A DNA stretch of 64,000 nucleotides from Hyphomonadaceae bacterium (GTDB taxonomy: Bacteria; Pseudomonadota; Alphaproteobacteria; Caulobacterales; Aquidulcibacteraceae). The stretch covers positions 48,290-112,289 of the forward strand of contig JALHOC010000003.1 of NCBI GenBank assembly GCA_022843225.1, given 5' to 3'. How positions within the stretch are numbered: the first letter of the stretch is position 1; each line of letters starts with the position of its first letter. Under the pieces are notes generated by a model. The model worked only from the letters and a program-made list of their open reading frames with translations. It had not been told where the DNA came from and searched no databases. This document shows positions 10,637-25,814 of the stretch, in pieces. Position numbers and translations under genes: made by a program.

Positions 10637-12252
10637 TTCGCGCTCTCCTCCAGCAGCCGTCGCGCAATCACCATGGCCTGGATTTCGCCGGCGCCTTCGA
10701 AAATGTTGAGGATGCGCGCATCGGCCAGCACCCGGCTGATCGGATATTCCACCGCGAAGCCATTGCCGCCATGAATTTGCAGCGCATTGTCCGCAGCGGC
10801 CCAGGCGACGCGCGCGGCCAACAATTTCGCCATGCCGGCTTCGAGATCGCAGCGTTTGCCGGAATCCTTCTGCCGCGCCGCGAAGTACGTAATTTGCCGC
10901 GACGCCATGATCTCGGCGGCGATCATCACGAGCTTGTTGGACACGCGCGGGAAATGAAAAATCTCCTGCCCGAACTGTTTGCGCTCGACGGCGTATTTCA
11001 AGCCGAGTTCCAGCGCGCTTTGCGCCACCCCAACCGCGCGCGCGGCGGTTTGGATGCGTGCGCTCTCGAACGTCGCCATTAATTGCTTGAAGCCCTGCCC
11101 TTCTACCCCGCCAAGCAGGTTGGCCGCCGGCACCTTGAAGCCGTCGAAGCCGATCTCGTACTCCTTCATGCCGCGATAGCCGATCACTTCGATCTCGCCG
11201 CCGGACATCCCCGGTGTCGGGAATGGATTGGCGTCATCGCCGCGCTGTTTCGGCGCAAGCAACATCGACAAACCATTGAAGCCGGTTGTGTTCGGATCGG
11301 TGCGCACCAGCATCGTCATCACGTCAGCGCGGGCGGCGTGGGTGATCCAGGTCTTGGCGCCGGTAACGACGTAATGATCGCCCTCTTGCACCGCGCGCGT
11401 GCGCAGCGACCCGAGATCGGAGCCGGTGTTCGGCTCGGTGAACACGGCCGTCGGCAGAATCTCGGCGCTCGCGATCTTCGGCAGCCAATAGGCTTTCTGC
11501 TCCGGCGTGCCGCCGATCAGAATGAGTTCGGCTGCGATTTCGCTACGTGTGCCGAGCGAACCCGTGCCGATCCAGGCGCGCGACAATTCCTCCGACACCA
11601 CGCACATCGCGGTCTTGCCGAGGCCCGCGCCGCCATACTCTTCCGGGATGGTCAGCCCAAACACGCCGAGCGCGCCCATCTCATTGAGCACGTCAAGCGG
11701 GATCAGCTCATCGCGGCAATGCCAGCCATGGGCATGCGGCATGATCTTATCGTCCGCGAACTTGCGGAATTGATCGCGGATCATCTCGGAGTCGGCATCG
11801 AGATTGGTGGTCTCAAAGGTCGCGCGGCCTTGAGCATCGTGCAGCAAAGCGGCGAGACGCGTCTTTTCATCCTGACTGATCGCGACCGTCACGCGCGGCG
11901 CATCGACCCCAAAATCGGCTGGGCGAATGGTCTCGACCTGCGTCATGGGCAAGCCGCCGGCGAGTTGGGCGCTATATTCTGCGACGAGCACTTTGGCCAA
12001 AAGGCTTTCGACCTCGCCCAACTTGCCTTGCGCATGGAGCGCGCGCGCCCAGTCGCGTACTTCGCGCAGGGTTTCGGCATAGGTCGCCACCCAGGCGAGG
12101 CCGTGAACGACATGCTGTTCGCGATCCATGGCGGCGCGGTCCAGGCTGGCGCCTTTCGCCACCCGCCCACGAACGGCCGCGCGCGCCGCGCGCATATAGC
12201 TTTCCGCTGCGTCAGCAACAGCTTCCAATTGACCTACGATCTCAGCACTCAT
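10633..12252 (-). CDS. mcd: Acyl-CoA dehydrogenase, probably (2S)-methylsuccinyl-CoA dehydrogenase
   Basis: ACAD motifs FTEPNTGSDL, GAKTWIT, IFEGAGEIQ; N-terminal extension with HGLAWVATY typical of Mcd; ccr and ecm nearby. Confidence 0.8.
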   Translation of the reverse strand: MSAEIVGQLEAVADAAESYMRAARAAVRGRVAKGASLDRAAMDREQHVVHGLAWVATYAETLREVRDWARALHAQGKLGEVESLLAKVLVAEYSAQLAGGLPMTQVETIRPADFGVDAPRVTVAISQDEKTRLAALLHDAQGRATFETTNLDADSEMIRDQFRKFADDKIMPHAHGWHCRDELIPLDVLNEMGALGVFGLTIPEEYGGAGLGKTAMCVVSEELSRAWIGTGSLGTRSEIAAELILIGGTPEQKAYWLPKIASAEILPTAVFTEPNTGSDLGSLRTRAVQEGDHYVVTGAKTWITHAARADVMTMLVRTDPNTTGFNGLSMLLAPKQRGDDANPFPTPGMSGGEIEVIGYRGMKEYEIGFDGFKVPAANLLGGVEGQGFKQLMATFESARIQTAARAVGVAQSALELGLKYAVERKQFGQEIFHFPRVSNKLVMIAAEIMASRQITYFAARQKDSGKRCDLEAGMAKLLAARVAWAAADNALQIHGGNGFAVEYPISRVLADARILNIFEGAGEIQAMVIARRLLEESAN

Positions 12253-17458: not shown

Positions 17459-18247
17459 TCAGCTCAGCGCGCCCATCGCCGCGCGCGTTGCATCGTCCGC
17501 GGGAAACAGCAGTTCCAAGCGCAAATCGCGCACCGCCGCGTCTTCGTTGGTGCCGAAATGCGTGATCGCTGAAAGGAACCGCAATTCGCCCGTCGGCGTC
17601 CTGAGCGCGAGCGGCACTAAGGGCCGCCGCGGTTGCGCGGGCTTAGGCGGCGGATGGCGCCGCGCGGCTTCCTCCAAAAGCTTAAGCAAATCGGCGAACA
17701 CCGCATCGCCGCCCGCTTCCAAAGCCTCCAGCCGGATACGCCCGATCATCTCATCGAGCACTTCGCCGAAATTGACGATGAGGTCCGGCGCCAGCGGGCT
17801 TTGCGCCAACATCCGCACCATGTTCATTTCGCCGCTCTGCCCATGCAATGGCGCCAGCAACGCACGCGCGGTTTCGTTGGCGTCATGCAGTGTCCAATAA
17901 CGATCGCACAGCATGGCGGGGTTCGGCGCATGGCGCGCCATCATTTCGGACAACACGGCGCGCAAAGGCCCCAGCGCCTCAGCGTCCAGCGGCGTTGACG
18001 GATAAAGCGGCGCGAACCCCGCCGCGATCAGCAACGCATTACGTGACGCGCGCGGGATCACCATCGCGTCCGCCAATGTCAGCACCATGTCGCGGCTCGG
18101 CTTGGCGCGGTTGGTTTCCAGGAACGACAGGTGCCGGGCCGAGGCGCCCGCAGCCAACGCTAGATCGAGCTGGCTTAAGCCACGCTGTTGCCGCCACGCG
18201 CGCAGCGCATCGCCAAAACTGGACGGGGCCTCAACGAGTGAACTCAT
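17459..18247 (-). CDS. XRE-family HTH regulator with MmyB-like ligand-binding domain
   Basis: WRQQRGLSQLDLA..SARHLSFLETNRAKPSR, RNALLIAAGFAP, LRLELLFPAD. Confidence 0.92.
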   Translation of the reverse strand: MSSLVEAPSSFGDALRAWRQQRGLSQLDLALAAGASARHLSFLETNRAKPSRDMVLTLADAMVIPRASRNALLIAAGFAPLYPSTPLDAEALGPLRAVLSEMMARHAPNPAMLCDRYWTLHDANETARALLAPLHGQSGEMNMVRMLAQSPLAPDLIVNFGEVLDEMIGRIRLEALEAGGDAVFADLLKLLEEAARRHPPPKPAQPRRPLVPLALRTPTGELRFLSAITHFGTNEDAAVRDLRLELLFPADDATRAAMGALS

Positions 18248-20358: not shown

Positions 20359-21630
20359 CTAGCCCCGCGCCGCACTTGCCTCCAGCACGTCGTCCCACGT
20401 GCGGAGCCCGCTGCGCTGCGCGTTCACCAGCACAGCCATGTTTCCCGGCGCGTGCTTGTTATCGAGCATTTTTTCGTGGGCATCGGGGATTTTGTCCCAC
20501 GGGAACACTTCCGACATTGCCGGATCGATACGTCGATCGATCACGAGTTGGTTGGCCTGAGAAGCGTGGTACAAGTGCGCGAAGTGCGAGCCCTGCACGC
20601 GCTTCTGGCGCATCCACAGGAAGCGCGCGTCCATGGTGAGATTGAAGCCGGTGGTGCCGGCGCAGATCACCACCATCCCGCCGCGCTTGCACACCAGAAC
20701 CGACACCGGGAACGTCGCCTCACCCGGATGTTCGAACACGATATCGACATCCTTGCCGCCAGTGATTTCCCAGATGGCTTTGCCGAACTTGCGGCTTTCT
20801 TTCATGTAGTCGGCGAACTCCGGGCCGTTCACTTTCGGCAATTGGCCCCAGCACTTGAAATCGTTGCGATTGAGCACCGCCTTCGCGCCCATCGAGAGCA
20901 CGTAATCTTTTTTATCTTCGCTCGACACAACGCCAATCGCATGCGCGCCGCTCACCGCGCAAAGCTGCGTCGCGAACACGCCCAAGCCGCCGCTCGCGCC
21001 CCAAACCAGCACGTTCTGCCCAGGCCGCAACACGTTCGGCCGCCAGCCGAACAGCATGCGATACGCGGTCGCGAGCGTCAGCGTGTAACAGGCGCTCTCT
21101 TCCCAGGTGAGGTGCTTTGGGCGCGGCATGAGCTGGCGCGCCTGGACGCGGCAGAATTGCGCGAAGGAGCCGTCGGGCGTTTCGTAACCCCAGATGCGCT
21201 GGCTCGGCGAGAACATCGGGTCGCCGCCATTACATTCTTCGTCGTCGCCGTCGTCCTGATTGCAATGGATGACGACCTCGTCGCCCGGCTTCCAGCGCTT
21301 CACCTTGGCGCCCACAGCCCATACAATGCCCGACGCATCCGAGCCGGCAACGTGGAAGGGCTGCTTGTGGCCGTCGAGCGGCGAGATCGGCTCGCCAAGC
21401 GCGGCCCAAACGCCATTATAGTTCACGCCCGCCGCCATCACGAGGACGAGCACTTCGTCCTCGCCGATCGTTGGCACCGGCACCTGTTCGAGCTGCATGG
21501 CCTTGGCCGGGCGGCCATGGCGTTCCTTGCGGATCGCCCACGCCCACATCTTATCCGGCACATGGTATTGTGGTGGGATTTCCCCAACCGCGTAGATGTC
21601 TTTGACCGCTTTCAGGTTCGCCTGAGCCAT
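20359..21630 (-). CDS. ccr: Crotonyl-CoA carboxylase/reductase
   Basis: VMAAGVNYNGVWA, HVAGSDASG, WGYETPDGSFAQF, RFLWMRQKRVQGSHFA. Confidence 0.97.
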   Translation of the reverse strand: MAQANLKAVKDIYAVGEIPPQYHVPDKMWAWAIRKERHGRPAKAMQLEQVPVPTIGEDEVLVLVMAAGVNYNGVWAALGEPISPLDGHKQPFHVAGSDASGIVWAVGAKVKRWKPGDEVVIHCNQDDGDDEECNGGDPMFSPSQRIWGYETPDGSFAQFCRVQARQLMPRPKHLTWEESACYTLTLATAYRMLFGWRPNVLRPGQNVLVWGASGGLGVFATQLCAVSGAHAIGVVSSEDKKDYVLSMGAKAVLNRNDFKCWGQLPKVNGPEFADYMKESRKFGKAIWEITGGKDVDIVFEHPGEATFPVSVLVCKRGGMVVICAGTTGFNLTMDARFLWMRQKRVQGSHFAHLYHASQANQLVIDRRIDPAMSEVFPWDKIPDAHEKMLDNKHAPGNMAVLVNAQRSGLRTWDDVLEASAARG

Positions 21631-21646
21631 GGCCCCGCCCTTATGT

Positions 21647-21658
21647 TGCAGTGCACAA
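21647..21658. promoter_or_regulatory. TGCRNYGCA box upstream of ccr (PhaR-type)
   Basis: TGCAGTGCACAA, 17 nt upstream of the ccr ATG. Confidence 0.6.
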
Positions 21659-21681
21659 TGGGCCATCTTTTGAGCAAGGCG

Positions 21682-22821
21682 TCAATGGGGCGACGTTTTG
21701 ACGGCGTCCGCGAACTGGGCCTGGCTCAGAGCGGCCTCGGAGCGCGCCGCATTCGCGGTTTTCCGCGCGCGGATGGCATTGACCATCTCCAGCGCGGTTT
21801 TTTGTGGGGGTGGCAACTCGTCGGGGCAAACGCTGATCGGCGTAACGCGCTCGCCCCAGCGCACGACATGGGCGCAATAAGTGAGCCCCGCACCGAACGC
21901 CGGCATGAGAATAAGCGAACCGGGCTTCACACGCCCCTCGTCGAGTGCAGCCGCTAGCGCCACCGGCACCGTGGCCGAACTCATGTTGGCATAACGCTCG
22001 ACGGTGAGCATCACCTTCTCCATCGGGATGCCCGCGCGCGCAGCGACCGCCTCGATGATGCGCAGATTGGCTTGGTGCGGGACCACAAGGTCGATGTCCT
22101 CAACCGTCACGCCGCATTTGGCCATCGCGGCAGCGCTCGCTTGCGCCATACCGTGTACAGCACGTTTGAACACTTCTTGGCCGTCAAAATCGATTAGCGT
22201 ATTGCCGATGGTTACGTCCTGATTCACGTAGGCCGCGCCCATGCCACGAATACGAAGGGTCTGGCGCGCATCAGCGATGCAGCCGAGCTGATCGGCCAGA
22301 ACACCCTCTTCGCGATCACTCGCTTGCACAACAACGGCGCCGCACCCATCGCCGAACAGAACCGCGACGTTACGATTGTCCCAGTCGATATATTGCGCGA
22401 TGATCTCGACGCCGATGACCACCGCGTTGCGCACAACGCCAGTGCGGATCATCGCATTGGCGGTCGACAAGCCATAGAGAAAACTTGTGCATGCGGTGTT
22501 GACATCCATCGCGCCGGCGCGCTTGGCGCCAAGCGCAAATTGCACGCCGGATGCCGTGTTAGGAACCTGTTCGTCGTTGCTGCAACTGCCGAACACGATC
22601 AACTCGACATCCGCCGGATCGAGGCCGGCGCAGGCCAGAGCGCGGCGCGAGGCCAGGATCGCCAATTCCGTGCCGCTCACGTGCGAGATGCGCCGCTCGC
22701 GCATACCGGTTCGCGTGGCTATCCACTCGTCGCTGGTGTCGAGAAATGTCGAAAGGTCGGCGTTGCTCAGGATTGCTGGCGGCATCGCCGCGCCCCAGCC
22801 CGTGATGGCCGCGTATGGCAT
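21682..22821 (-). CDS. 3-oxoacyl-ACP synthase III (FabH-like) with C-terminal extension
   Basis: MPYAAITGWG, DTSDEWIATRTG, ACTSF (Cys), VLFGDGCGA, PHQAN (His), YANMS (Asn); tail WGERVTP..ELPP..TALE. Confidence 0.93.
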   Translation of the reverse strand: MPYAAITGWGAAMPPAILSNADLSTFLDTSDEWIATRTGMRERRISHVSGTELAILASRRALACAGLDPADVELIVFGSCSNDEQVPNTASGVQFALGAKRAGAMDVNTACTSFLYGLSTANAMIRTGVVRNAVVIGVEIIAQYIDWDNRNVAVLFGDGCGAVVVQASDREEGVLADQLGCIADARQTLRIRGMGAAYVNQDVTIGNTLIDFDGQEVFKRAVHGMAQASAAAMAKCGVTVEDIDLVVPHQANLRIIEAVAARAGIPMEKVMLTVERYANMSSATVPVALAAALDEGRVKPGSLILMPAFGAGLTYCAHVVRWGERVTPISVCPDELPPPQKTALEMVNAIRARKTANAARSEAALSQAQFADAVKTSPH

Positions 22822-22912
22822 TGCTTTCCCCCTTTGGCGCAGCGTCGGCGCGCCGCTTCCAAGCGTATTCGTACGACGCCCGTGGAGTCGCCGCCATAGG
22901 CGCGCGCGATGC

Positions 22913-22924
22913 TGCGGCGCAAAA
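22913..22924. promoter_or_regulatory. TGCRNYGCA box upstream of FabH-like gene
   Basis: TGCGGCGCAAAA within TGCTGCGGCGCA, a 12-mer identical to the ecm site. Confidence 0.55.
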
Positions 22925-22960
22925 GAAGGGGCACCCCGGCTGACCAGAGCGCCCCTATTT
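22921..22960 (-). terminator. Rho-independent terminator of the porin-like gene
   Basis: Minus strand GGGGCGC...GTGCCCC followed by TTCTTTT. Confidence 0.75.
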
Positions 22961-22985
22961 GAGGTACGCGGGGAAAGGAGGAAGC

Positions 22986-23723
22986 TTAGTAGACGCCGCC
23001 CGACACGGTGCCGACGCCGGAGAGGCTCGCGCCCGAACGATTGCGTTCGAACAGGGAACCTGTGCCGAAGCTCCAACGCAACCCGACTTCCCATGTGTCC
23101 ACATCGGCGACAGCAGCATCGAATTCGCTCGTGCGATAGCCGCCGGTGAAGCTGAAGGGACCACCGCCCGGCTGCCACTCCAGGTTCAGCGACGTCGAGT
23201 TGATGCCTAAGCCGTCAACATCGAGATCGCGATAGCCGGCGCCGACAGAGAACGTGTCGGTCACGAACCAGGTGGCGCCGACTCGCGACGTCGATCCGTT
23301 TTCATCGAACGTCCCGCCTTCAGCGCTCGTGAACGCGATGGCGCCATCCAGCGTCAGCCGTGACAGATAGAGTTGGCCTTCGGCGCCGAAATGGTAGGCG
23401 TCGATATTGAACGAAGCCTCTTCGACACCCACGAACCCGCCAACCAGAAAATTGTCATTGCGGTTGAAGACGTGCAGGTTCGCGACCGAATAGGTATGGT
23501 TGAAGCCACTGCTTGTATCGACGCGGCTGAAGCGAGCGTCCACCTGCGCTTCGAGTGATGACGTCATGTCGAAATTGACCGCGCCGCCAAAATTGATCGT
23601 ATTGACGCCCGAGCCCTGGTCGGCGTCGGAGTAGCTCAGATCGAGATGGCCGTCGGCCGCAGACGCCACGCCAGGGACGAGAAAGGTCAGCGCCGTCGCC
23701 GCGCCCAAAAGCAGTTTACGCAT
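22986..23723 (-). CDS. Outer-membrane beta-barrel (porin-like) protein
   Basis: Signal peptide MRKLLLGAATALTF..ASA; alternating Gly/aromatic strands; VGLRWSF near the C-terminus. Confidence 0.8.
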   Translation of the reverse strand: MRKLLLGAATALTFLVPGVASAADGHLDLSYSDADQGSGVNTINFGGAVNFDMTSSLEAQVDARFSRVDTSSGFNHTYSVANLHVFNRNDNFLVGGFVGVEEASFNIDAYHFGAEGQLYLSRLTLDGAIAFTSAEGGTFDENGSTSRVGATWFVTDTFSVGAGYRDLDVDGLGINSTSLNLEWQPGGGPFSFTGGYRTSEFDAAVADVDTWEVGLRWSFGTGSLFERNRSGASLSGVGTVSGGVY

Positions 23724-23818
23724 GTCATTCCCCCAAAAGGTTTGGAGAATCACAGCTACCTGCTTCGCAGGGGTCGTGCGCTACCCGTTTGGGTAGGGCC
23801 TGTCGTTGGGGCAGTTGC

Positions 23819-23830
23819 TGCGGCGCACAA
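23819..23830. promoter_or_regulatory. TGCRNYGCA box upstream of ecm (PhaR-type)
   Basis: TGCGGCGCACAA, 19 nt upstream of the GTG; related palindrome CCTGCTTCGCAGG at 23759-23771. Confidence 0.6.
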
Positions 23831-23849
23831 CGGCGGTTAGGGAATCACC

Positions 23850-25814
23850 GTGAGCTACCAGCACGCCCCCGACCCGCCCTGGATCTTCCGGACCTATTCT
23901 GGGCATTCGACGCCGGCTGAGTCCAATAAGCTCTACAAGACCAATCTGACCAAGGGCCAGACGGGGCTCTCAGTGGCTTTCGATCTGCCAACCCAAACGG
24001 GCTATGACAGCGACCACATCCTCGCGCGCGGCGAGGTCGGCAAGGTGGGCGTGCCGATCGGCCATTTGGGTGACATGCGCACCCTTTTCGACGGCATTCC
24101 GCTGGAACGCATGAACACGTCAATGACGATCAATGCGCCGGCGGCATGGCTCTTGGCGCTCTACGTTGCGCTGGCTGAGGAACAAGGCGCAGACCTCAAA
24201 AAGCTCACCGGCACGACGCAGAACGACATTCTGAAAGAATATCTTTCGCGCGGCACCTACATCTTTCCGCCTGCACCATCGCTGAAGCTGACTGCCGACA
24301 CTATCGCCTGGAGCTTGGACGCGATCCCGAAGTGGAACCCGATGAATGTCTGCTCCTACCATTTGCAGGAAGCGGGCGCGACGCCGGAACAGGAATTGGC
24401 TTTCGCGCTCGCGGCGGCGATCGCAGTGCTCGATGGAGTGCGCGCACGCGGCGAAGTTCCGCCCGAGCGCTTCGACTTGGTGTTCTCCCGCATTTCCTTT
24501 TTCGTGAATGCGGGGCTGCGTTTCATCACCGAAACCTGCAAGATGCGCGCGTTCACGCAGCTATGGGACGAAATCGGCGAGCAGCGCTATGGCGTGGAAG
24601 GCGACGTGCACCGCCGTTTCCGTTATGGAGTTCAGGTCAATTCCCTCGGCCTGACTGAACAACAAGCGGAGAACAACGTCTATCGCATCTTGCTCGAAAC
24701 GCTTTCCGTAACGCTGTCGAAGCATGCGCGCGCACGCGCGGTGCAGCTGCCAGCCTGGAATGAAGCCTTGGGCTTGCCGCGACCTTGGGATCAACAATGG
24801 TCGCTGCGGATGCAACAGGTGCTCGCCTACGAGACCGATCTGCTTGAGTTCGAGGACATCTTTGAAGGCTCCAAGGTGATCGAAGGCAAGACCGCCGAGC
24901 TGATCGAAGGCGCGCGCGCTGAACTCGCCGCGATCGACGGCATGGGCGGCGCGGCGGCGGCGCTTGAGCATATGAAAGCAGCTTTGGTGGACTCCAACCG
25001 CAAACGCGTTGAGGCCATCGAAGCTGGCGCTCAGAAGATCGTCGGCGTCAATTGCTTCACCGAGGCTGAACCCTCTCCGCTCGAGGCGGGCGAGAAATCC
25101 ATTCAGACCGTTGATCTCGCCGTCGAAGCCGAGCAGATCGCGCGGCTGAGGTCATGGCGCGCGCAACGTAACCGCGACGCCGCCGAACGCGCGATCACGG
25201 ATTTGCGCAGCGCCGCCCAGGAAAACCGCAATGTGATGCCGGCGTCATTGACCTGCGCGAAAGCCGGCGTCACGACCGGCGAATGGGCGCAAACATTGCG
25301 CGAGGTCTATGGCGAGTATCGCGGGCCGACAGGCGTCGCGCTGTTCATCGAAACGGGCGGCGAAGACATCGACGGCGTGAAACGTGATGTCGCCGCGCTC
25401 TCAGAGAAACTCGGCCGACAGCTCAGCTTCCTGGTCGGCAAACCGGGCTTGGACGGCCACTCCAACGGCGCCGAGCAAATCGCCGCGCGCGGGCGCGCCG
25501 TCGGCATGGAGGTGCATTACGAAGGCATTCGCCTAACGCCTGCCGAGATCGTTGCTGCTGCGAAGCACAAGAGCGCGCACGCCGTGGGCCTATCGATCCT
25601 CTCCGGCTCGCATCTCGACTTGGCTCAAGAAGTTGTACGCTTGATGCGCGCGGAGGGGCTGGAGCGTGTGCCGCTGGTGGTTGGCGGCATTATTCCGCCG
25701 GCTGACGCGCTGGCGCTCAAACAAATGGGCGTTGCCGCCGTCTACACACCGAAGGACTTCAAGATCACCGGCATTATGGGCGATATCGTGAAGCTCGTGG
25801 CGGACAGAAACTAG
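23850..25814 (+). CDS. ecm: Ethylmalonyl-CoA mutase (MeaA/Ecm), B12-dependent
   Basis: PWIFRTYSGHS, GLSVAFDLPTQTGYD, RFRYGVQVNSLGLTEQQ, B12 motif DGHSNG. Confidence 0.95.
   Translation: MSYQHAPDPPWIFRTYSGHSTPAESNKLYKTNLTKGQTGLSVAFDLPTQTGYDSDHILARGEVGKVGVPIGHLGDMRTLFDGIPLERMNTSMTINAPAAWLLALYVALAEEQGADLKKLTGTTQNDILKEYLSRGTYIFPPAPSLKLTADTIAWSLDAIPKWNPMNVCSYHLQEAGATPEQELAFALAAAIAVLDGVRARGEVPPERFDLVFSRISFFVNAGLRFITETCKMRAFTQLWDEIGEQRYGVEGDVHRRFRYGVQVNSLGLTEQQAENNVYRILLETLSVTLSKHARARAVQLPAWNEALGLPRPWDQQWSLRMQQVLAYETDLLEFEDIFEGSKVIEGKTAELIEGARAELAAIDGMGGAAAALEHMKAALVDSNRKRVEAIEAGAQKIVGVNCFTEAEPSPLEAGEKSIQTVDLAVEAEQIARLRSWRAQRNRDAAERAITDLRSAAQENRNVMPASLTCAKAGVTTGEWAQTLREVYGEYRGPTGVALFIETGGEDIDGVKRDVAALSEKLGRQLSFLVGKPGLDGHSNGAEQIAARGRAVGMEVHYEGIRLTPAEIVAAAKHKSAHAVGLSILSGSHLDLAQEVVRLMRAEGLERVPLVVGGIIPPADALALKQMGVAAVYTPKDFKITGIMGDIVKLVADRN

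Follow-up and report, generated by a model that had tools for sequence, protein, structure and literature searches.

In other bacteria PhaR is a repressor that is titrated by nascent polyhydroxybutyrate (PHB). In Methylobacterium, M. extorquens included, ccr, the gene for crotonyl-CoA carboxylase/reductase, is controlled by CcrR, a regulator of the TetR type. The PhaR consensus of Bradyrhizobium diazoefficiens USDA110, TGCRNYGCASMA, comes from an alignment of the DNase I-protected regions of phaP1 and phaP4 with six further promoters that were bound, and the canonical targets phaP and phaZ carry the box (Nishihata et al. 2018, PMC6201568). TGC-rich PhaR boxes are also described for P. denitrificans and R. 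sphaeroides, where, in the account that PMC10888616 gives of the work of Maehara et al., TGC...GCA inverted repeats lie at the phaP and phaR promoters and the repressor is titrated by PHB. According to PMC12983893, which cites Shimizu, Teramoto, Inui (2022, Appl Environ Microbiol 88:e00507-22), PhaR of R. sphaeroides (Cereibacter) represses the ethylmalonyl-CoA (EMC) pathway and PHB relieves that repression, thereby serving as a signal for the assimilation of acetyl-CoA; the same source credits Korotkova (2002) with the proposal that PhaR of M. extorquens AM1 partitions acetyl-CoA among PHB, the EMC pathway and the tricarboxylic acid cycle. We describe here a 64,000-nucleotide stretch of DNA (the window) from a Hyphomonadaceae bacterium, in which three boxes of the PhaR type stand upstream of ccr, of a gene for a beta-ketoacyl-acyl carrier protein synthase III (KAS III), and of ecm, the gene for a candidate ethylmalonyl-CoA mutase.

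We consider it likely, with a probability of roughly 0.8, that the boxes before ccr and ecm (boxes 1 and 3), and probably the box before the KAS III gene (box 2), are operators of PhaR, the PHB-responsive repressor encoded on contig C10 of the same genome. Membership of this regulon is strongly supported for ccr, well supported for ecm and moderately supported for KAS III. If the assignment holds, the genes for acetate assimilation through the EMC pathway would probably be switched on in this soil bacterium only while PHB is made. Regulator family, pathway and logic are the same as in R. sphaeroides, as that system is summarized in PMC12983893; what this uncultured member of the Caulobacterales adds are predicted operators at ccr (over the -10 element) and ecm, as well as at hbd and possibly at the FabH2-like KAS III gene, and the occurrence of a ccr box in about two thirds of 79 alphaproteobacterial ccr loci extends beyond the R. 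sphaeroides case. The core consensus is that of B. diazoefficiens, whereas the local motif is a longer palindrome, wwATGyTGCRnYGCArCATww, and EMC genes go unmentioned in the main text of PMC6201568. The concept of a link between PhaR and the EMC pathway is therefore already published for another alphaproteobacterium, and what appears to be new is the mapped operator architecture and the finding that the link of ccr and ecm to PhaR is widespread. No report of PhaR operators at ccr or ecm was found in the literature searched, outside which the primary paper of Shimizu (2022) lies.

Three boxes between ccr and ecm

The window is positions 48290-112289 of contig C3 of genome G000, a Terricaulis-like metagenome-assembled genome (MAG) of the Caulobacterales (2.86 Mb, 63% GC, 117 contigs), in which our own gene calls gave 2840 genes, 293 kb of intergenic sequence and 2571 kb of coding sequence. 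The closest public ccr loci, with 92% Ccr identity, are labelled uncultured Terricaulis sp. or Hyphomonadaceae MAGs. Genes, gaps and boxes follow one another in this order:

20359-21630, minus strand: ccr, crotonyl-CoA carboxylase/reductase (647 bits with the TIGR01751 equivalog, whose cut-off is 379)
21631-21681: first gap, 51 bp
21641-21661, no strand: box 1, predicted operator of ccr, of the PhaR type and 21 nt long; its core TGCAGTGCA spans 21647-21655, and on the ccr strand it reads CCATTGTGCACTGCAACATAA
21682-22821, minus strand: FabH2-like KAS III (NF006829, 359 bits)
22822-22985: second gap, 164 bp
22907-22927, no strand: box 2, candidate operator for PhaR, 92 bp ahead of the start of KAS III; its core TGCGGCGCA spans 22913-22921
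22986-23723, minus strand: small outer-membrane beta-barrel-like protein (OMP) with a signal peptide; ATG at 23723 from the sequence
23724-23849: third gap, 126 bp
23813-23833, no strand: box 3, predicted operator of ecm, of the PhaR type, lying 20-31 nt ahead of the GTG start codon; its core TGCGGCGCA spans 23819-23827
23850-25814, plus strand: ecm-type B12-dependent acyl-CoA mutase, the ethylmalonyl-CoA mutase candidate, with mutase N- and C-terminal domains

The ccr start at 21630 is the one from whose first residue the N-termini of relatives align, an alignment that rules out the longest open reading frame (start at 21666), which would put box 1 inside the gene. A Ccr equivalog together with a divergently linked B12 mutase marks an EMC gene pair, and both are found here, the specificity of the mutase being predicted from its sequence; it scores 444 bits with TIGR00641 and 101 bits with TIGR00640, under the equivalog cut-off for methylmalonyl-CoA mutase. 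The best solved relatives of the KAS III protein are the 'synthase 3 protein 2' structures 4wzu and 4x9k (E 1e-110). For the OMP there is no match in NCBIfam and only a sub-threshold match to YfaZ.

The initial annotation had proposed that one TGCRNYGCA box recurs in three consecutive intergenic regions, together about 340 bp long, and brings ccr, KAS III and ecm under PhaR. The boxes are indeed there, as TGCAGTGCACAA at 21647-21658, TGCGGCGCAAAA at 22913-22924 and TGCGGCGCACAA at 23819-23830, boxes 2 and 3 sharing TGCTGCGGCGCA (22910-22921 and 23816-23827), and with gene ends corrected for ccr (start 21630) and the OMP (start 23723) the gaps measure 341 bp. Chance would supply about 0.05 sites in that length, in keeping with the estimate of well under one match, and three are present. 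Each of them matches the 12-mer TGCRNYGCASMA on one strand or both (box 2 on the minus strand only). The Bradyrhizobium site that the annotation had named is a real one, the B. diazoefficiens PhaR consensus (PMC6201568). That box 2 is a duplicate of box 3 was considered and rejected, as the likeness stops at the 12-mer. The clustering carries weight: nowhere else in the genome are three consecutive gaps occupied, and random placement of 42 intergenic sites gave a three-gap run in 173 of 20000 trials (p≈0.009).

PhaR and its probable targets across the genome

A PhaR regulon presupposes a phaR gene, and the genome has one, at C10:11768-12406 (PF07879, 108.6 bits; TIGR01848 equivalog, 160 bits, where the cut-off is 109); a thiolase gene diverges from it. 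The gene set further includes a single phasin, PhaC and PhaZ. The phasin (phaP) promoter holds the perfect palindrome TGTTGCAgTGCAACA, and 29 of 30 relatives keep a box before their phasin gene at that same distance, with the consensus gCATGkTGCRnTGCArCAAAA. From the relatives' phasin-promoter boxes only, with G000 left out, we built a symmetrised 21-nt weight matrix and scanned the whole of G000 with it. The five best matches are all intergenic:

Rank 1: phaP, 32.4 bits
Rank 2: the ccr box, 27.8 bits
Rank 3: upstream of hbd, 27.2 bits
Rank 4: C23:7902, 23.5 bits
Rank 5: phaZ, 21.5 bits

The context of the phaP box, TTATGTTGCACTGCAACAAAAG, is nearly identical to that of the ccr box, CTTATGTTGCAGTGCACAATGG. 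The gene hbd, downstream of etfBA, encodes a 3-hydroxybutyryl-CoA dehydrogenase (NF005715, 511 bits), and the box 39 bp upstream of it (C2:60075-60095, 27-28 bits) reaches at least 15 bits in 25 of 30 relatives, including every same-genus genome retrieved, so that hbd is likely a core member of the regulon. The genome-wide occurrence expected by the initial annotation was borne out at phaP, and found also at phaZ and hbd; at phaR we see a degenerate box only.

The phasin-only matrix gives the KAS III box 10.3 bits and the ecm box 9.5 bits, and both scores count against these two boxes. In the genus, however, the phaZ box is fixed at about -29 from the start, and many of these boxes (GGTTGCTGCGCCGCAGCAGAA) also score only about 10.6 bits, which indicates that a matrix built from phasin boxes under-scores a variant with G+C-rich flanks. 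The phaZ promoter box of this genome, GATTGCTGCGTTGCAGCAAGAAG, resembles the boxes of both ecm, AGTTGCTGCGGCGCACAACGG, and KAS III, CGATGCTGCGGCGCAAAAGAAG. For a second matrix we took the boxes that relatives have at phaP, hbd and phaZ, keeping G000 and all EMC genes out; this one places ccr 3rd (25.5 bits), KAS III 10th (17.7 bits) and ecm 22nd (13.7 bits), so that three of the genome's 22 best sites fall within 2.2 kb. At 13.7 bits or more there are 12 intergenic sites (in 293 kb) versus 10 coding sites (in 2571 kb), and at 17.7 bits or more 8 versus 2.

Several results weigh against a PhaR regulon here. The bare 9-mer, which is its own reverse complement, occurs 12 times in the window versus 15.6 +/- 4.1 times in shuffles, and its 391 sites in the genome are spread at 0.143/kb in intergenic and 0.136/kb in coding sequence; enrichment of the core was therefore rejected as evidence, and with equal densities in the two compartments the 9-mer pattern alone proves nothing. 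No box was found at phaC in the genus. The degenerate box upstream of phaR (C10:~11689-11709, in the phaA-phaR divergent gap) scores 5 bits; it contains TTGTCTTGCATTGCGGCGAAG, kept in essentially all genus members, which may be a weak, half-degenerate autoregulatory operator or a promoter element. Strong boxes do lie upstream of phaR in three genomes from other families. As a separate observation, phaR and ccr share a contig, 15-30 kb apart, in several same-genus genomes (G003, G009, G011, G016, G017, G019 and G020), a loose linkage of the regulator and its EMC targets.

That binding is by PhaR is itself a sequence-based deduction, and some other protein could in principle own these boxes, their likeness to PhaR sites being coincidental. 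A TetR-type, CcrR-like EMC regulator is one candidate. Another is the MmyB-like helix-turn-helix (HTH) protein (PF17765 ligand-binding domain and XRE-type HTH) encoded at 17459-18247 on the minus strand, 3.4 kb from ccr, and the want of a strong box at the phaR promoter in the genus speaks in the same direction. We regard this explanation as highly improbable. The same motif is the top match in the genome at a phasin promoter, is kept there in 29 of 30 relatives and recurs at phaZ and hbd; the boxes match the consensus of footprinted PhaR sites (PMC6201568). The annotated flanks of ccr (the MmyB-like protein, a sulfate-transporter-family protein, a bacterioferritin, RimO and three proteins without a family match) include no match to the TetR family. 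Furthermore, the sampled ccr loci of Methylobacterium, Methylorubrum and Methylocystis, where CcrR acts, have no such box.

Another kind of site fared less well. The initial annotation had named a Rhodobacter site of the form CTGC-N3-4-GCAG; a TGC-rich PhaR box is described for R. sphaeroides (PMC10888616). A palindrome of this form, CTGCTTCGCAG (CTGC-N3-GCAG), is present at 23760-23770. It is unlike the local matrix, with which it scores below 0, and 50 sites of its type occur in the genome. With that score it is not supported as an operator of the Rhodobacter type; only TGCRNYGCA-type boxes are supported in this genome.

Conservation at ccr and ecm, and the inserted KAS III gene

On the coding strand of ccr the box is a palindrome of 15-21 nt, TTGTGCACTGCAACA, placed against two putative promoter elements:

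21655-21660, minus strand: putative -10 hexamer CATTGT (acaatg in the window), overlapped by box 1; proposed from conservation
21680-21685, minus strand: putative -35 hexamer TTGACG (cgtcaa in the window), overlapping the KAS III stop codon

The sequence upstream of ccr in 14 genus members reads ATTGACG-N16-19-CATTGT followed directly by GCRNYGCARCA-N13-20-ATG. CATTGT is found in 13 of these 14 promoters and CTTTGT in the other, while N16-19 is not conserved; that the spacers on either side have diverged speaks for selection acting on the box. In a second set of genus members the box is joined to the -35 element instead (TTGACGCAGTGCAGCA or TTGCGCAGTGCAACA). A simple sigma-70 scan of 21500-24000 found no promoter, the proposed hexamers coming from conservation.

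Conservation of the ccr box extends well beyond the genus. Among ccr loci retrieved from 27 relatives, 21 of them of the same genus, 22 have a box of at least 15 bits. Within 300 nt upstream of ccr such a box occurs in 52 of 79 public alphaproteobacterial loci, versus 1 of 237 control windows inside ccr, in a set that spans Caulobacter, Hyphomonas, Ponticaulis, Aquidulcibacter, Sneathiella, Parvibaculum, Rhizomicrobium and many Hyphomicrobiales. The loci of Methylobacterium, Methylorubrum and Methylocystis (L170, L175, L176, L178, L182, L185, L186 and L199) have no PhaR-type box within 300 nt, unlike most of the other Alphaproteobacteria sampled, and a direct ccr operator is probably unused in that lineage.

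At ecm the box is weak in G000 and strong in the relatives, 20 of 27 of which have one of at least 15 bits within 260 nt upstream of the gene (a few reach it only through a box shared with ccr) and 24 of 27 one of at least 9.5 bits. Some relatives have it directly against the start codon, and a very short leader is suggested there, or a transcript with no leader at all. Conservation in orthologous promoters, on which the initial annotation had staked its proposal, is therefore found for ccr and for ecm, with the caution that the relatives share ancestry and these counts overstate their independence. We are confident that the ccr box is a functional PhaR site, and we think it likely that the ecm box is one too.

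A different possibility is that PhaR binds these boxes and activates ccr and ecm, as has been proposed for some targets in B. diazoefficiens. PhaR boxes at positively regulated genes have been reported (PMC6201568, PMC10888616), and outside the genus several relatives have their ccr box 130-240 nt before the start, at a distance that activation would allow. In the genus, by contrast, the box overlaps the proposed -10 element and proposed start site, as the operators of repressors classically do, and the R. sphaeroides data, as summarized in PMC12983893, point to negative regulation; we judge activation very unlikely. Altogether, the sequences show the motif with its rank in the genome, its occurrence at canonical PhaR targets, its conservation before ccr and ecm, and a PhaR gene; from these we infer the two hexamers, PHB as the signal, and PhaR as a protein that binds the sites and represses, not activates, the genes.

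The case for the KAS III box is more difficult. Most relatives have ccr and ecm side by side and divergently oriented, each with its own proximal box; the gap between them is 180-220 bp in five same-genus genomes, and ecm lies no more than 3 kb from ccr, on its upstream side, in 58 of 80 wider loci. In G000 the KAS III and OMP genes form a 2.2-kb insertion (21682-23723) between these ancestrally adjacent genes, one that left the ccr core promoter intact. No such insertion was observed in 26 of the 27 relatives, nor at any of 80 additional ccr loci. Among the 27 relatives only G021 shares with G000 a fabH at the ccr/ecm locus, none of the 80 further loci has one, and the OMP gene is absent from all of these loci. 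A second structure lies in the gap that holds box 2:

22917-22956, minus strand: terminator-like hairpin and T-tract 3' of the OMP gene; 13-pair stem with 9 G-C pairs, followed by TCTTTTGCGC

It may therefore be that only the ccr box, perhaps with that of ecm, is functional, and that box 2 matches by chance or is simply where the OMP terminator ends, leaving KAS III outside the regulon. Box 2 starts inside the T-tract, which supplies its AAAA flank. With the phasin-only matrix its 10.3 bits stand near the bottom of the 42 matches of at least 10 bits, and weak intergenic matches (10-15 bits) are only about twice as frequent as expected by chance. The fabH of G021 points towards ecm and has no box before it, and since the insertion is essentially unique to G000, box 2 cannot be footprinted by comparison. 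Set against this, the matrix that takes in the positionally conserved phaZ boxes gives box 2 a score of 17.7 bits, which only two coding matches attain in 2571 kb, and the box lies within the genome's only three-gap run, with the KAS III start 92 bp away. On our reading of the sequence, it would be overlapped by a possible promoter, TTGCGC-N17-CTATGG. We treat the restriction of the regulon to ccr and ecm as a possibility to be taken seriously, if not the one we favor, and incline toward the view that box 2 is a functional PhaR site. Co-regulation of the three genes through PhaR, as initially proposed, is supported for ccr and ecm by matrix and conservation alike; KAS III, for which there is no orthologous promoter, is the least secure member.

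A proposed link between PHB status and acetate assimilation

How PhaR would act at ccr is suggested by the position of its box, which appears to begin inside the -10 hexamer of a sigma-70-type promoter and to cover the expected transcription start. PhaR bound there would exclude RNA polymerase, and promoter occlusion is the most likely mechanism of repression. By analogy with characterized PhaR proteins, the repressor would move from DNA to nascent PHB granules while 3-hydroxybutyryl-CoA is being polymerized. Its departure would release phaP, phaZ, hbd, ccr and ecm together, and entry of C4-CoA into the EMC pathway would in this way be gated by PHB status.

Other boxes were seen elsewhere in the genome. 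The fourth-best (C23:7902-7922, about 24 bits) lies in the gap between two convergently called genes, and a small, uncalled, hydrophobic open reading frame of about 55 aa on the minus strand may lie just downstream of it. Further intergenic boxes of 15-20 bits are found at C12:50000 (the divergent amtB/ubiH gap), C55:9005 (upstream of gltD) and C8:31517 (upstream of typA). The amtB/ubiH box is position-conserved at -105 in about a third to half of genus members, and the gltD box is found in only 5 of 30. These three boxes hint that PHB status may be linked to nitrogen assimilation. One could go further and imagine a broadly conserved circuit in which the status of PHB granules gates ccr, ecm and the (S)-3-hydroxybutyryl-CoA dehydrogenase, and in this Terricaulis-like lineage also the FabH2-like enzyme of fatty-acid priming and the amtB/ubiH and gltD promoters, PHB serving as a global signal for carbon and nitrogen; in that full form we find the idea doubtful.

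For the organism itself, the boxes would amount to ordinary regulation by a known regulator. In a larger context, PhaR operators on the ccr core promoter and upstream of ecm would provide a concrete molecular basis for PHB as a signal as well as a store. Anyone engineering EMC flux or PHB-free strains would, on this prediction, have to remove phaR or these operators. Some two thirds of the 79 loci sampled have a ccr box, which suggests that the phenotype of R. sphaeroides, in which phaC mutants grow poorly on acetate unless phaR is removed, reflects a general design.

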